Below, piece after piece: positions 27,010 to 32,000 of a DNA stretch of 32,000 nucleotides. The DNA is from Methanococcus maripaludis (GTDB lineage Archaea > AGJL01 > Methanococci > Methanococcales > Methanococcaceae): the NCBI RefSeq assembly GCF_002945325.1, contig NZ_CP026606.1, positions 1,080,001 through 1,112,000 on the forward strand, given 5' to 3'. Each line of letters opens with the position of its first letter. Position 1 is the first letter of the stretch. The notes under the pieces are model-generated. The model worked only from the letters and a program-made list of their open reading frames with translations, was not told the origin of the DNA and did not search any database. Position numbers and translations under genes: made by a program.

Positions 27010-28212
27010 TTATCTATTTTTAATCAGTTTTTCAATCTTTTCAAGCTTTTTAACAATTTCTAGGGAATTATCCCCGAGAATTGTTAAATTGGGTTTTTTT
27101 TCTTCAAAATATAGAATATCCGAAAAGTTTTCATCGAAAAGAGTTCTGGATCTGTTCTGAATTAATTCTTCTTTTAATGACGAAATAGGGTCATTTAAAA
27201 GTTTCATCGGACATATTGAAAGTTTTGAGTTTTCCAATTTACTTTTAATCGATTCATCACTTTTTAAAGAAATGCAGGATCTTATTTTTGGATTAAATTC
27301 TTTTAATTTTAATAATAAATCTGAATTAGTATTTGAAATTCCAAAGTTGATATCTCCGTTATTTTTGACTGTTGCAATATCTAAATACGTTTCTGGTAAA
27401 AGAATACTTTCTGAAATTATAAAATTAGGATCAGCTAACGAAATGTCTATATTTTTAAGTAAATTAAATGCATAGGCTAAATTTTTTTCAACAGATTCTT
27501 TATCAATACTTGTTGGATTTGAATTGTATCCAAATTTTGTTTTTTCCGCGTAGATTACTGATCCTAACACAAATTCTTTTGCAGATACTATTGAATCTTT
27601 AACAGTCATTCCAGTGGATAAAAAACAGGTGATTGCAGAAGAATATGTGCAACCCGTTCCGTGAACTTCTTTTTCAACGTATTTTCCAGTTATTTCGATA
27701 TTTTTATTATTAATTTTTAAAACATCTGTTTTTCCGGTTACAAGTACATTAATATCATTTAAATTGGATTTGGACGTTTCAAACATTTTTTCAATGATTT
27801 CAAACTCTTTTAAATTTGGAGTTATCAAAAAGCACTCTTTAAAAAATTCGAAATACTTTTTATTTAAAAAATCATCAGAAAATTCGAAATCTGTGGTTGA
27901 TTTTAAAACAGGATCACAAATTATGTTAAAACCATACTTTTCTTTAAATTCCAAAATAATATCAATTGAATCAATGGTTAAAACTCCTGTTTTAACCCAA
28001 TTTACGTCAAAATCTTCAAAAATTGCATCAAATTGTGCTTTTATCTCTTCTTTTGATAGATCTTTTTTTAAAAAAACTTTATTATTATTTTGGGGGATAA
28101 TTGATGTTATTATTGAAAGAGGATTTTTTTGGAGTTCTTTTATCGTTTTTACATCTGCAACGATTCCTGCACCGCCTGTTGGATCAAAACCTCCAACTGT
28201 CAAGATATTCAT
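27010..28212 (-). CDS. thiDN: Bifunctional ThiDN (HMP/HMP-P kinase fused to a ThiN-type thiamine-phosphate synthase)
   Basis: The ThiD part has GGFDPTGGAGIVADVKT and HGTGCTYSSAI, followed by a ~150-aa C-terminal ThiN-size domain. ATG 28212 follows the RBS AGGTGA, which overlaps the upstream TAG stop. Confidence 0.8.
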   Translation of the reverse strand: MNILTVGGFDPTGGAGIVADVKTIKELQKNPLSIITSIIPQNNNKVFLKKDLSKEEIKAQFDAIFEDFDVNWVKTGVLTIDSIDIILEFKEKYGFNIICDPVLKSTTDFEFSDDFLNKKYFEFFKECFLITPNLKEFEIIEKMFETSKSNLNDINVLVTGKTDVLKINNKNIEITGKYVEKEVHGTGCTYSSAITCFLSTGMTVKDSIVSAKEFVLGSVIYAEKTKFGYNSNPTSIDKESVEKNLAYAFNLLKNIDISLADPNFIISESILLPETYLDIATVKNNGDINFGISNTNSDLLLKLKEFNPKIRSCISLKSDESIKSKLENSKLSICPMKLLNDPISSLKEELIQNRSRTLFDENFSDILYFEEKKPNLTILGDNSLEIVKKLEKIEKLIKNR

Positions 28213-28221
28213 GAAAATCAC

Positions 28222-29085
28222 CTAAAAAGAAATTGGAGTGTATTCCCTTTTTATTACCGGAACTTCCGAAACACAGTCGCTGTTTATTGAATTTAGTATA
28301 AATCCATCCATTGTTTTTAAATAAACAAGTAAACATCCTTTAATTGTAACATTTACGTTTGGTGCAACTTTTTTGATTTTTTCAACCAATAACAATAAAT
28401 CTTTTATTTTTCCAACGTTTTCAAGATTTCCAACGTTTTCAAGTTCTTCCAAATTTTCAGGATGAATTACGAGCTGGTGAACCATCATTTCGGAAACTCC
28501 AATTTCATTTAACATTTCACCAAGTTTTATTAATTCTTCATCATTAAACCCGGGAATATATATCGATCTTACGATTGTATGGAAATATTTTGAAGAGAGT
28601 TTTATATTTTCTAAAACTTTTTCAAAAGTATCGTCTTTTACAAGTTTTTCATGCGTTTTTTTGTTTGAAGCACTTAAACTGATCATTACTAAGTCCAAAC
28701 CAAGGTCCTTAAATTCTTTTAAAAGATCTTCGTTTAAGATTACTCCATTGGTCTGTAAATCGCACCGCAACCCTTTAGATTTTACATATTTAATTGCATT
28801 TTTTACTTTTTTTGGATACATCAGTGGTTCGCCATACTGGCTTATGGTAACTGCTTTAAATTTGCTTAAATCTCCGTATAACCCTGGTTTTACACTAGTT
28901 AAATTAGAATAACAGAATATACAGTCATGATTACATTTTTGCGTTATTTCGATAGTCGGGTGGTGATGAGGGTCTTCATTTTTCAGATCCATTCCTTCGC
29001 AACCAATACAGTGTTTTATAACTCTTAAATCACTTACAATATTTTCTAAACGGTCACAAATCTCATTTCTTAACGTTATTTTCAA
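28222..29085 (-). CDS. Radical SAM protein, subfamily unknown
   Basis: It has the CX3CX2C cluster motif CNHDCIFC followed by QYGEPLMYP (a SAM-binding GGE-like motif). An extra N-terminal CIGC pair is present. The TTG start follows the RBS GGTGA (29096-29092). Confidence 0.8.
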   Translation of the reverse strand: MKITLRNEICDRLENIVSDLRVIKHCIGCEGMDLKNEDPHHHPTIEITQKCNHDCIFCYSNLTSVKPGLYGDLSKFKAVTISQYGEPLMYPKKVKNAIKYVKSKGLRCDLQTNGVILNEDLLKEFKDLGLDLVMISLSASNKKTHEKLVKDDTFEKVLENIKLSSKYFHTIVRSIYIPGFNDEELIKLGEMLNEIGVSEMMVHQLVIHPENLEELENVGNLENVGKIKDLLLLVEKIKKVAPNVNVTIKGCLLVYLKTMDGFILNSINSDCVSEVPVIKREYTPISF

Positions 29086-29170
29086 AATTTCACCGGATTA
29101 TTTCGAAAGATATTTATTTTTCAATTTTTAAAATTTATTCTGCATATAATAATATATAGATAAAAGGTAG

Positions 29171-29191
29171 TTGTGTATAGATCTAACACAA
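29171..29191. promoter_or_regulatory. Palindromic operator candidate 1 (TTGTGT-N9-ACACAA)
   Basis: It has perfect 6-bp inverted arms at 29171-76 and 29186-91, flanked by TAG and ATA. Confidence 0.5.
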
Positions 29192-29200
29192 ATAAAAACA

Positions 29201-29208
29201 TTTATATA
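29201..29208 (+). promoter_or_regulatory. TATA box candidate for the DUF169 gene
   Basis: A consensus TTTATATA lies 64 bp upstream of ATG 29272 and midway between the two palindromes. Confidence 0.5.
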
Positions 29209-29224
29209 TTACGGATGTTTATAG

Positions 29225-29245
29225 TTGTGTGTAAAGTATACACAA
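29225..29245. promoter_or_regulatory. Palindromic operator candidate 2 (TTGTGT-N9-ACACAA)
   Basis: It has perfect 6-bp inverted arms at 29225-30 and 29240-45, flanked by TAG and GTA. It lies where transcription from the 29201 TATA box should start. Confidence 0.5.
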
Positions 29246-29271
29246 GTAGGTATAATGGACTGGTGATATAG

Positions 29272-29964
29272 ATGGAAATTCAAAAAATTAAAGAACTCGG
29301 AAAAAAACTTCAAGACCTTTTAGCTCTAGAAAAACCTGCAACAGCAGTTAAACTTGTAAAATCAAAAGAAGAAATTCCAGAAGGCTATGCTGAAATAGAA
29401 ACTCCTGTAAGGCACTGTGAAATGATTCAAAATGCAAGAACTGAAGGTAAAAAGTTCTACGCAACAGTCGAAAAACAAGCATGTAAAGGTGGAGCATACG
29501 CGATTGGAATTTTACAAAATCCTCCTGAAGCATTGAAAAGCGGTGTTTTGTACCACAACTTAGGAAACTTCCCAACCGAAGAAGCTGCAATTAAAACAGT
29601 TCAGGCAATTCCAAGGGTTAAAGAAGCAATTTACGCTGGAGTTTATGCACCATTAAACGATGCAGACTTTGAACCTGACAGCATTGTAGTTTTAGTAACT
29701 CCAAAACAGGGTTTAAGACTTACTCAAGCACTTAATTATGCAGCAGGTGGAAGATTCCAGGCAGACTTTGCAGGAATTCAATCTTTATGTGCTGATGCAG
29801 TAGCTGCTGTAAAAACAAGAGGTGTAGCAAACGCAACACTCGGATGCAACGGTTCAAGAGCTTATGCACATATTAAAGACGATGAGCTTGTATTTGCATT
29901 CCCACTTTCAGATTTGGAAAACGTAATTGGTGCACTTGAATACTTCAAGGAAAAATGGAATTAA
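29272..29964 (+). CDS. DUF169-family protein
   Basis: The length (230 aa) and blocks such as ACKGGAYAIGIL and LGCNGSRAYAHI fit my memory of DUF169 (COG2043). The RBS GGTGAT precedes the ATG. Confidence 0.55.
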   Translation: MEIQKIKELGKKLQDLLALEKPATAVKLVKSKEEIPEGYAEIETPVRHCEMIQNARTEGKKFYATVEKQACKGGAYAIGILQNPPEALKSGVLYHNLGNFPTEEAAIKTVQAIPRVKEAIYAGVYAPLNDADFEPDSIVVLVTPKQGLRLTQALNYAAGGRFQADFAGIQSLCADAVAAVKTRGVANATLGCNGSRAYAHIKDDELVFAFPLSDLENVIGALEYFKEKWN

Positions 29965-29974
29965 AATTAAATAA

Positions 29975-31357
29975 TTAATTTTGATTTCTGATATTTTTTC
30001 TTGCAAGTGAAGCAAAAATTCCGAATAAACAAAGAATGGCAGAAACTTTAAATGATGCAGTTATCCCTTGAAGGAATAGCGGACTGAATTCTGCGGAAAT
30101 TGGGTTATTTCCAACATAAAATGCGATCAATACAGTTATTATTGCCATACTGGTCATCTGACCCAAAATCCTTACAGTTGCAAGCATTGCAGAAGCAACT
30201 CCTGCAAATTTCCTTTCAACTGAACTCATTATTGCATTCGTGTTTGGGGAGCTAAAAAGTGCAAATCCAAATCCGAGAAGCATTAAATTTAATATTATCT
30301 GATAAATACTCGTATCTAACTTAATAAATGAAAATAGCACTAATCCGCTACAGGTAATTCCCATTCCAAGGGATGCTAAAATCCTAGGTTCAATTTTATC
30401 GGATAATTTTCCGGTAATTGGTGAAAATATTGCCTGTACAAGGGGCTGTGCTAAAAGGATTATTCCTGCATCTTGGGCAGAAAATCCTCTCAAACTTTGA
30501 AGATAAAAACTGATCAAAAATGCCACTGCATAAGTTGCACCGTAATTTAACAGTGCAGCAAGGTTCGACATTGAAAATGCAAGATTTTTCGTAATGAGTT
30601 TGATGTTCAGAATTGGATTTTCTGTTTTATGCTCTCTATGGATAAATATAGATCCAAAAAGCAATGACACGAGTATAAAAATAGATCCTCCTGAACTAAA
30701 GGTAATAAATCCATATACTAAGAATACAAGTGAAATTATGTATGTAATCGAGCCGAAATAGTCAAATGTTTCGCCTTTTGCGTCACACCACTCGTTTAAA
30801 ACGAATTTCTTGGCAATAATGTATGTTAAAATTCCAATAATTCCTGAAAATAAAAATATACTTCTCCATCCAAAATAATGGGTCAAAATTCCTCCGAGGA
30901 ATGGCCCTAAACTAAGACCAATGTAAACTGTGGCAATATTAATTCCAAGGGCTTTTCCTCTTTCGTTTAAGGGGTAAAATGAGGTTAATATTGCAATAGC
31001 AGTTCCAAATATCATGGCACTACCTATTCCTTGAAGTATCCGAAGTAAAATCAAATGAGTGATTGATCCGGAAAATATCCCCATTAACGAGGATAATCCA
31101 AAAATTAACAGTCCATTTAATAAAATTCGTTTCCTACCAATAATATCTGCAATTCTTCCAAAGGGGAGTAAAAGTGCAGAACTTGCAAGTAGGAATGAAG
31201 TTACAAGCCAGCTTAAAAGGATAGTATCGGCTGAAAATTCTGTTCCAATACTTGGAAGAGCAAGATTCAATGCAGTGCTCATAAAAGGAGTTAAAAATGA
31301 TGATATCGCGGCAACAACTGCCACAATGGATTTTTCATTTTTCATGTGAATCGCCAA
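29975..31357 (-). CDS. MFS transporter (14-TM drug:H+ antiporter-like)
   Basis: About 14 hydrophobic helices are present, with the MFS loop motif GRIADIIGRKR between TM2 and TM3. The start is either TTG 31357 or ATG 31345 (MKNEKSIVAV). Confidence 0.8.
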   Translation of the reverse strand: MAIHMKNEKSIVAVVAAISSFLTPFMSTALNLALPSIGTEFSADTILLSWLVTSFLLASSALLLPFGRIADIIGRKRILLNGLLIFGLSSLMGIFSGSITHLILLRILQGIGSAMIFGTAIAILTSFYPLNERGKALGINIATVYIGLSLGPFLGGILTHYFGWRSIFLFSGIIGILTYIIAKKFVLNEWCDAKGETFDYFGSITYIISLVFLVYGFITFSSGGSIFILVSLLFGSIFIHREHKTENPILNIKLITKNLAFSMSNLAALLNYGATYAVAFLISFYLQSLRGFSAQDAGIILLAQPLVQAIFSPITGKLSDKIEPRILASLGMGITCSGLVLFSFIKLDTSIYQIILNLMLLGFGFALFSSPNTNAIMSSVERKFAGVASAMLATVRILGQMTSMAIITVLIAFYVGNNPISAEFSPLFLQGITASFKVSAILCLFGIFASLARKNIRNQN

Positions 31358-31419: not shown

Positions 31420-31662
31420 ATGGTAAAAATTGAAGTATTTACATCACCAATGTGTCCACACTGTCCAGCAGCTAAAAGAATAGTTGATGAAGTTGCAAAA
31501 GAGATTGAGGGAATTGAAGTTGTACATATCAATGTAATGGAACACCCTGAAAAGGCTGCTGAACTTGGAATCATGGCAGTTCCTACCGTTGCAATAAACG
31601 GGGAAGTTAAGTTTGTTGGAGCCCCAACAAAAGATGCATTAATTGCAGAACTTAAAAAATAA
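31420..31662 (+). CDS. Small thioredoxin/glutaredoxin-like protein (CPHC active site)
   Basis: It is 80 aa with VFTSPMCPHCP and cis-Pro VPT, as in small methanogen thioredoxins. The RBS GGTGA precedes the ATG. Confidence 0.85.
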   Translation: MVKIEVFTSPMCPHCPAAKRIVDEVAKEIEGIEVVHINVMEHPEKAAELGIMAVPTVAINGEVKFVGAPTKDALIAELKK

Positions 31663-31775
31663 CTCATTTTATATTTTATTTAATATTAATTCACTTTTAA
31701 AAATCAGGAAGGATTGAAAACACATAAAGAATGGTTGTGTACAATAATGACATATCTACAAATTATGGTGTAATC

Positions 31776-32000
31776 ATGATAAAAGAGATAAACGTAAAAT
31801 CACTCAGAAGTCCCGCAATGCTCGTTGAAAAAGTAATCGAGAACACGAAAGGCGGAATTTTGTTGATCGAAACCGATGGGGATTCCCAAATCAAAGAAAT
31901 TTCCGAATTAATTAAAAAAATGGGTTATAAAATGGAAGTTGACGGAACAAACGTTAAAGTAAGCATTGGAGAAATTGAAGCTACAAAATCCATAAATGTT
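31776..32000 (+). CDS. TusA/SirA-like small protein lacking the active-site Cys, 3' end beyond window
   Basis: This ORF is not in the track because it runs off the window. ATG 31776 follows the RBS GGTG (31767-70). The product MIKEINVKSLRSPAMLVEKVIENTKGGILLIETDGDSQIKEISELIKKMGYKMEV... fits the TusA pattern, but it has RSPAML where TusA has CPxPxL. Confidence 0.5.
   Translation, partial: MIKEINVKSLRSPAMLVEKVIENTKGGILLIETDGDSQIKEISELIKKMGYKMEVDGTNVKVSIGEIEATKSINV

Follow-up and report, generated by a model that had tools for sequence, protein, structure and literature searches.

A palindrome pair bracketing the core promoter of a DUF169 unit in Methanococcus maripaludis: predicted operators of a thiol and sulfur regulon

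In archaea a protein site that lies past the TATA box and over the start of transcription is in the classical position for blocking recruitment of RNA polymerase. A site that adjoins the BRE on its upstream side is where activators sit that recruit TBP or TFB. SurR and TrmBL1 of the Thermococcales are dual regulators that act according to position, with the motifs GTTn3AAC and TATCAC-N5-GTGATA. SurR is concerned with redox and sulfur chemistry by way of a cysteine switch. The described members of the Lrs14/Sta1 family are crenarchaeal, and we know of no thioredoxin-type regulon for any of them. In M. maripaludis itself NrpR, the subject of work by Lie and Leigh, is said to use GGAA-N6-TTCC operators at nif and glnA, both reportedly downstream of the TATA box. 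The same organism has EarA, which is associated with four TACATA boxes immediately 5' of the BRE at the fla promoter, and Ptr2 and TFB-RF1 are discussed with it (PMC5512572).

Here we consider two copies of a palindrome, TAG-TTGTGT-N9-ACACAA-nTA, on either side of a TATA box before a DUF169 gene of M. maripaludis. The pair resembles the NrpR system in that it comes from the same organism, consists of paired palindromic operators (predicted ones in our case) with one over the start (again a predicted one here), and has a regulator that would be encoded elsewhere. It differs in that the TATA box stands between the two sites, and in that the genes point to thiol and sulfur chemistry, whereas NrpR belongs to nitrogen. 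A direct reading also gives TTGTGT-N9-ACACAA at both sites rather than GGAA-N6-TTCC. The likeness to EarA, Ptr2 and TFB-RF1 is one of position, since a gap of 8-10 nt separates the TATA box from the end of the upstream site, and likewise from further copies at cdc48 and at tRNA genes. Those proteins work at a weak BRE or TATA, but the TATA box here is the consensus TTTATATA, and EarA has boxes of 6 bp where we find an inverted repeat of 21-27 bp. As with SurR and TrmBL1, a single motif takes two positions, upstream of the promoter for some genes and past the TATA box for others. The motifs are different, however, and our candidate regulator is a protein of 130 aa with a single, Lrs14/Sta1-like domain. 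No orthologue of SurR or TrmBL1 was found linked to this motif.

We argue that the palindromes are DNA sites for a dimeric winged-helix regulator that bracket the proximal promoter (P2) of a DUF169, thioredoxin and TusA/DsrE unit within a thiol and sulfur regulon. From the sequence comparisons below we put the probability of this reading at roughly 0.7. It would be an archaeal operator pair of a familiar type with its regulator not encoded nearby. The motif and the regulon appear to be new, in that we found no published description of either in the literature.

The palindrome pair and its promoters

The window is the whole stretch of 32,000 nucleotides that was analysed. Its features around the pair are as follows.

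27010-28221, minus strand: ThiDN gene (S2 MMP1639), after the radical SAM gene
28222-29085, minus strand: radical SAM gene (S2 MMP1638), with the ThiDN gene coming next
29103-29118, plus strand: distal promoter P1 of the DUF169 unit, BRE/TATA TCGAAAG-ATATTTATT, identical to the MMP1637 promoter string of PMC6705878
29142, plus strand: equivalent of the primary start mapped for the S2 orthologue, with a 130-nt leader, placed by sequence identity with S2
29168-29194, no strand: site 1, TAG-TTGTGT-ATAGATCTA-ACACAA-ATA, ending 9 nt 5' of TTTATATA and adjoining the BRE (activator-type position)
29201-29208, plus strand: TATA box of the proximal core promoter P2, TTTATATA, invariant between both sites in G000 (this genome) to G003, G020, G021 and G022
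29222-29248, no strand: site 2, TAG-TTGTGT-GTAAAGTAT-ACACAA-GTA, beginning 16 nt past the TATA box (an operator-type position that covers the predicted P2 start)
29272-29964, plus strand: DUF169 gene (PF02596, Pfam E-value 6e-64; S2 MMP1637), first gene of the putatively controlled unit
29975-31357, minus strand: MFS transporter gene (DHA2-type efflux, by Pfam; S2 MMP1636), inserted into the ancestral DUF169-Trx-TusA/DsrE cluster
31420-31662, plus strand: small CPHC thioredoxin gene (by Pfam; S2 MMP1635), after DUF169 in all genera
31735-31755, no strand: weak third site TTGTGT-N9-ACATAT (score 11.8 with the position weight matrix described below), ahead of the TusA-TusA-DsrE gene
31776-32000, plus strand: TusA-TusA(CPGP)-DsrE fusion gene (271 aa; TusA 6.8e-20, DsrE 2.7e-15; S2 MMP1634), continuing beyond the window end

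Sites 1 and 2 are identical 27-bp palindromes apart from letters in the spacer and flanks. Each is a perfect 6-N9-6 dyad, or 9-N9-9 with the flanks counted, a size that suits a dimer. Their centres are 54 bp apart. The initial annotation had reported twin perfect palindromes at this distance bracketing a TATA box, and a direct reading agrees with it exactly. The window contains TTGTGT-N9-ACACAA twice against an expectation of 0.06, and none of 100 shuffles reaches two copies. These are the only perfect copies in the genome (one contig, 1,714,918 bp, 32.9% G+C). Two perfect copies 54 bp apart are thus far beyond chance. There are 4 more copies with one mismatch, which is no excess over what the same arms give at other spacings between 0 and 24. 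One-mismatch copies are therefore at chance level, and the strict motif does not define a genome-wide regulon. It had been proposed that a search with one mismatch would define one, but a regulon emerges only by way of orthologous promoters.

A conserved block GTT(T/C)ATAG lies directly 5' of site 2 (window 29214-29224 and the orthologous positions), and many sites have nn-AT(A/G)AA(C/T) after the right arm, so the element is not fully symmetric. The genus g2 version of the block reads TTGTTTATAG-TAGTGT and adds a third sequence that resembles a half-site, TTGTTT, directly oriented and 10 bp 5' of the left arm.

The ATG of the DUF169 gene is at 29272 and GGTGAT lies 5' of it at 29262-67. A sequence search found no solved structure for DUF169. 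Gene order across the order gives an ancestral cluster of DUF169, CPHC-thioredoxin, a small Cys-rich protein, TusA/DsrE, a V4R-like protein in some genomes, and DUF5400. M. maripaludis has lost the small gene and gained the MFS gene on the opposite strand, which is absent from this position in all other genera of the order. In G003 the TusA-DsrE gene is a pseudogene (C1:957258-957665, a match with 5 TGA and 4 TAA stops), and both sites before DUF169 are kept there.

The unit has two promoters to consider. A dRNA-seq table for strain S2, which gives one start per gene, lists MMP1637 with 9837 reads, the promoter TCGAAAGATATTTATT... and a 130-nt leader that begins with GCATATAATAATATATAG and contains both palindromes and TTTATATA (PMC6705878). 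The beginning of that leader matches the window at 29142-29159. This makes 29142 the counterpart of the S2 start, 130 nt 5' of the ATG, and means that both sites are also transcribed from P1. P1 is conserved in an alignment of G000-G003 and G020. The mapped S2 start is 83 nt 5' of site 2, and the P2 start is predicted from geometry alone; with a single start tabulated for each gene, a second one may exist. In genera g2 and g5 the only obvious TATA box before the site is the P2-type TTTATATA. The initial annotation had put site 2 where the DUF169 transcript should start. This would hold for the predicted P2 start, which site 2 covers, but not for the start mapped in S2, which leaves both sites inside the leader.

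Published transcripts also bear on the reach of this promoter region. A transcript antisense to MMP1636 (Antisense_27) is co-transcribed with MMP1637 and MMP1635 at r > 0.96 (PMC3814884), which implies that the DUF169 promoter region also feeds the thioredoxin gene. MMP1635-1633 form a single operon with an internal terminator, and the FPKM values are about 1200 for MMP1637, 860 for MMP1635, 320 for MMP1634, 65 for MMP1638 and 13 for MMP1639 (PMC10450193). Since DUF169 reaches about 1200 in standard growth, the sites do not silence the unit under those conditions. The S2 table lists no start for MMP1638, MMP1635 or MMP1634, and it gives thiDN a separate start, mapped 181 nt upstream and within the radical SAM gene (PMC6705878). 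An internal terminator with a 5-fold drop lies between the radical SAM gene and thiDN in S2. With this separate start and the terminator, the "translationally coupled" pair is not simply co-expressed.

Conservation and the choice between DNA and RNA

DUF169 orthologues were taken from 37 genomes of the order Methanococcales, which cover five genera and two families. Among 30 primary orthologues, 23 have an upstream site that departs from T[T/A]GTGT-N9-ACACAA by at most two mismatches, and 4 more have a site with three mismatches in the same place. It was not found in the upstream regions of G004-G006, which make up 3 of the 30. The genome holds 78 copies with at most two mismatches per 1.71 Mb, which gives a chance expectation of about 0.01-0.03 site per 300 bp. 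The element is present upstream of DUF169 in all five genera.

Its position is constant when measured from the TATA box. The equivalent of site 2 always begins 16-22 nt past a BRE/TATA with the pattern cgaaa-N-TTTATATA. Genera g1 (the M. maripaludis group and G003), g3 and g4 also retain site 1, where it always ends 9-10 nt 5' of the same TATA box. It is absent from genus g2, in which the neighbour is often a tRNA gene. The centres are 54-56 bp apart in genera with both sites. An alignment of the five closest genomes shows no change in the arms, in the TATA box or in the second BRE/TATA farther upstream, while both 9-nt spacers vary, and the layout is fixed as site1-N9/10-TATA-N16/18-site2. 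The phylogenetic footprint that had been proposed as a check therefore exists: across five genera the arms and their distances to the TATA box are conserved and the spacers drift. Conservation of arms and TATA spacing is as predicted for operators, and agrees with the earlier suggestion that the sites are regulator-binding palindromes at a core promoter.

The repeat could in principle be a neutral by-product that serves no function today, such as a duplicated promoter module. Such a module can indeed duplicate. Before DUF169 in G021 (L018, C34:689-790) a module of palindrome, accg(a/t)aaca and TTTATAT(A/T) stands twice in tandem, giving two promoters that each have a site in the upstream position. 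But a by-product should not keep its arms over family-level divergence while its spacers change, nor recur at unrelated genes, and the motif does both. We consider neutrality extremely improbable.

Since both sites are transcribed from P1, the palindromes must also be considered as RNA. They could form two hairpins in the 130-nt P1 leader, each with a 6-bp stem and a 9-nt loop, that influence how stable the transcript is, whether it ends prematurely or how it is translated. The RNA chaperone TRAM0076, for one, might recognise them. The minimum-free-energy fold of the leader does contain both hairpins. The S2 study places both palindromes within the leader, finds MMP1637 mRNA 2.3-fold lower in a TRAM0076 deletion, and includes the leader among those drawn with Mfold hairpins in its S6 Fig (PMC6705878). 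Predicted leader hairpins in this supplementary figure are the only, and implicit, appearance of the palindromes in the literature.

Against this, the fold is not an unusual one. Its free energy is -23.3 kcal/mol with z = -1.28, 21 of 200 shuffles are as stable, and there is no Rfam match at E-values up to 1. The arms do not evolve like a stem either. Across 56 non-identical sites the share of canonical pairs at the six arm positions is 89, 59, 100, 100, 82 and 70%, and changes are not systematically compensated. Among frequent forms TAGTGT...ACACAA, TAGTGC...ACACAA and TTGTTC...ACACAA are uncompensated, and the g5 form TAGTTC...ACACAA retains just 3-4 pairs. The distance to the TATA box is constant, but that to the P1 start changes through indels of 22-50 nt. 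The copies at cdc48 and tRNA genes are upstream of the TATA box and hence untranscribed. The conserved arms and TATA spacing, the drifting spacers and the uncompensated arm changes together argue that the element acts as DNA and not as an RNA hairpin. This evidence favours recognition as double-stranded DNA and makes a hairpin function in place of it quite unlikely, though an additional effect at the RNA level may exist in M. maripaludis.

The DNA reading leaves the question of which genes the pair serves. The initial annotation had one regulator on both sites controlling the radical SAM/thiDN unit together with DUF169, possibly by looping, and placed a minus-strand promoter at about 29140-29165. 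There is something to be said for this. On the minus strand site 1 is 3-6 nt from an AT-rich stretch that could hold a TATA box; it would adjoin any minus-strand TATA box within 29150-29165 on the upstream side. A comparable site-N4-TATA layout precedes a Memo-like gene in genus g5. In M. voltae grown on FeS2 versus Fe(II)/sulfide the Trx homologue is 8.4-fold up and the adjacent radical-SAM protein is 2.9-fold up along with it (PMC8516115). It must be noted that G004-G006 share the rSAM-DUF169-Trx gene order of M. voltae and do not have the motif, so the FeS2 response of M. voltae cannot be credited to the motif.

Gene order argues the other way. In G021 and G022, where DUF169 has a neighbour other than the radical SAM gene, site 1 is still present at its promoter, fixed at 9-10 nt from the plus-strand TATA box, and the radical SAM-DUF169 pair persists without any site in G004-G006. 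The proposed minus-strand promoter fares no better, because the stretch 29145-29165 is not conserved and is full of indels, of up to about 30 nt, among the five closest genomes. MMP1638 has no listed start and thiDN has its internal one (PMC6705878), and the two genes are expressed 20- to 100-fold below DUF169 and uncoupled from it (PMC10450193). Since site 1 follows the DUF169 promoter and the gene pair exists without the motif, co-control of the radical SAM/thiDN unit is unsupported, and we regard it as improbable. Looping is likewise unsupported.

Sites at other genes

A scan of 40 genomes for TWGTGY-N9-ACACAA gives 70 strand matches versus 19 for a reversed control. One recurrent target is the TusA-TusA(CPGP)-DsrE fusion gene. 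The weak third site of the window, at 31735-55, lies 5 nt past a BRE/TATA-like TTGAAAAC-ACATAAAG (31714-29) and is conserved in G001 and G002. In genus g5 it takes the form TTGTGY-N9-RCATAG, and the TusA-TusA-DsrE orthologues of that genus have full sites 3' of their TATA box.

A position weight matrix was made from the orthologous sites. The two window sites score 29.3 and 28.1, and the next match in the genome scores 17.5. This third-best match, TAGTGT-N9-ACACTA at contig coordinate C1:29418, is just 3' of TATATATA. The site (C1:29418-29444) precedes a gene for a 335-aa protein without a Pfam match (S2 MMP0960), which heads the trxB operon and is followed by thioredoxin reductase (MMP0959) and then an exported thioredoxin. 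A site is upstream of this gene in 14 of 15 orthologues and in all five genera. A CcdA-like gene is in or beside these clusters in some genomes. The motif thus stands before the DUF169 unit, TusA-DsrE and the operon of the 335-aa protein, trxB and exported thioredoxin, which indicates that the regulon concerns thiol/disulfide and sulfur-carrier chemistry.

Other copies are specific to lineages. The site precedes cdc48 in G008, G021 and G022. It precedes tRNA-Met in genus g5, annotated as such at three loci with the same site sequence at two more, and it is also found at two tRNA-Gly genes and a tRNA-Leu gene in G022 and at tRNA-Val in G020. All of the cdc48 and tRNA copies are 8-10 nt upstream of the TATA box. 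In this genome no site was found at the promoters of cdc48, the Memo-like gene, UPF0179 or amt.

A perfect TTGTGT-N9-ACACAA also lies beside an origin-like gap in G008, G025 and G036. In this genome the gap is a 700-bp AT-rich stretch (C1:976268-976967) between the gene of a wHTH-Zn protein and that of a 363-aa protein with a C-terminal wHTH. Here and at L042, L097 and L099 it has long inverted repeats, ttttcgggttttcgag...catgtat / atacatg...ctcgaaaacccgaaaa, and the two families of the order both preserve these. The gap has the look of a replication origin beside a divergent Orc1/Cdc6-like gene.

The three genomes G004-G006 (L011, L015, L017) jointly lack the motif, TusA-TusA-DsrE, the MMP0960-family gene for the 335-aa protein and the candidate regulator. 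They keep the rSAM-DUF169-Trx genes.

A link to selenium was considered and set aside. DUF169 appears there only as a STRING neighbour of YedE (PMC5322559). In strain JJ the TusA/TusD induced by selenium depletion (MMJJ_07490/07500) could not be tied to this locus, and the part of the table that was covered has no DUF169-type entry.

A candidate regulator and a model

The initial annotation held that the regulator is not encoded adjacently, and no regulator gene is indeed next to the locus. The wHTH families of G000 were profiled against those of G004 and G005. This singled out a TrmB-type wHTH protein of 130 aa at genome position C1:77524-77916. Its gene is in 35 of 40 genomes and absent from G004-G006 and two MAGs (54 and 85% completeness), so that among complete genomes only the three without the motif are missing it. 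Gene and motif thus occur together, but the pattern goes back to one joint loss in one clade, so it gives weak support for the pairing.

The protein passes the Pfam TrmB wHTH domain (53.8 against a cut-off of 25.6). It resembles the Lrs14/Sta1 family (PDB 3r0a, 2d1h, 6cmv), with 66.3 bits to the Sta1 model and 47.8 bits to Lrs14, but these are below the curated cut-offs of 80 and 90 bits. It is therefore a relative of that family rather than a certified member. The match to PDB 3r0a has an E-value of 1e-8 and includes both N-terminal cysteines. Of these Cys10 is present in 28 of 30 orthologues and Cys21 in all 30, and they possibly form a thiol switch. A search for related loci found the protein almost exclusively in Methanococcales.

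The candidate's own gene carries elements that look like the motif. In genera g4 and g5 there is TAGTTA-N9-NCACA(A/C) between the TATA box and the SD, and in g1 and g3 there is ATGTGT-N7-ACACAT upstream, with N7 and not N9 in M. maripaludis. These elements are suggestive of autoregulation. In this genome the perfect ATGTGT-N7-ACACAT is at C1:77380-77400, between a CBS-domain gene and the candidate's gene, and it is conserved in G001-G003 and G020. It shares the arm core of TTGTGT-N9-ACACAA with a spacer 2 nt shorter. We name this protein as the regulator of the motif only tentatively, as a possibility with the odds somewhat against it.

Several other proteins were considered and rejected as the regulator. 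The small Cys-rich protein (64 aa) and the V4R-like protein (148 aa) of the cluster are both absent from this genome. The wHTH-Zn protein beside the origin-like gap (genome 975747-976268) is present in G004-G006 and absent from G007 and G014, which have the motif. Small wHTH paralogues of 89-121 aa number 1-5 in each of the genomes tested, and their distribution does not fit that of the motif. Profiling of the Rrf2 and MarR_2 families gave no differential member. The 335-aa protein is present in only 15 of 40 genomes.

We propose the following model for the operator pair. A dimeric regulator would bind both sites, possibly as a dimer of dimers. On site 2, over the predicted P2 start, it would hinder recruitment of RNA polymerase at P2. 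On site 1, adjoining the BRE, it would sit where archaeal activators contact TBP or TFB. With one site in an activator position and the other in a blocking position, the same protein would activate or repress according to which is occupied. As P1 starts 130 nt 5' of the ATG, bound protein may also be a roadblock for P1 transcripts. The signal would be thiol or sulfur, as the controlled genes suggest. Any cooperative action of the sites, which share a face of the helix at a distance of 54-56 bp, is speculative.

A wider scenario can be drawn for the whole order. Methanococcales would share a thiol/disulfide and sulfur-carrier regulon under a small Lrs14/Sta1-like regulator with a two-cysteine switch, which activates next to the BRE and represses over the start. 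Its members would be DUF169, CPHC thioredoxin, TusA-TusA-DsrE, the 335-aa protein, an F420-type thioredoxin reductase and exported Trx, with CcdA in some species. In some species it would have been recruited to cdc48, to tRNA promoters and to the replication-origin region. Taken with all of its parts this scenario is doubtful.

Both the binding site and the regulon are known for very few methanogen transcription factors, and for this motif one candidate regulator gene can now be named. A promoter with an activator-type and a repressor-type copy on either side of a consensus TATA box would be useful for studies of the action of archaeal regulators on TBP, TFB and RNA polymerase. The motif also ties DUF169, the 335-aa MMP0960 family and DUF5400 to the thioredoxin system and the TusA/DsrE sulfur carrier. 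This would give these genes a physiological context, stress of a redox or sulfur kind, in a model organism that lends itself to genetics.
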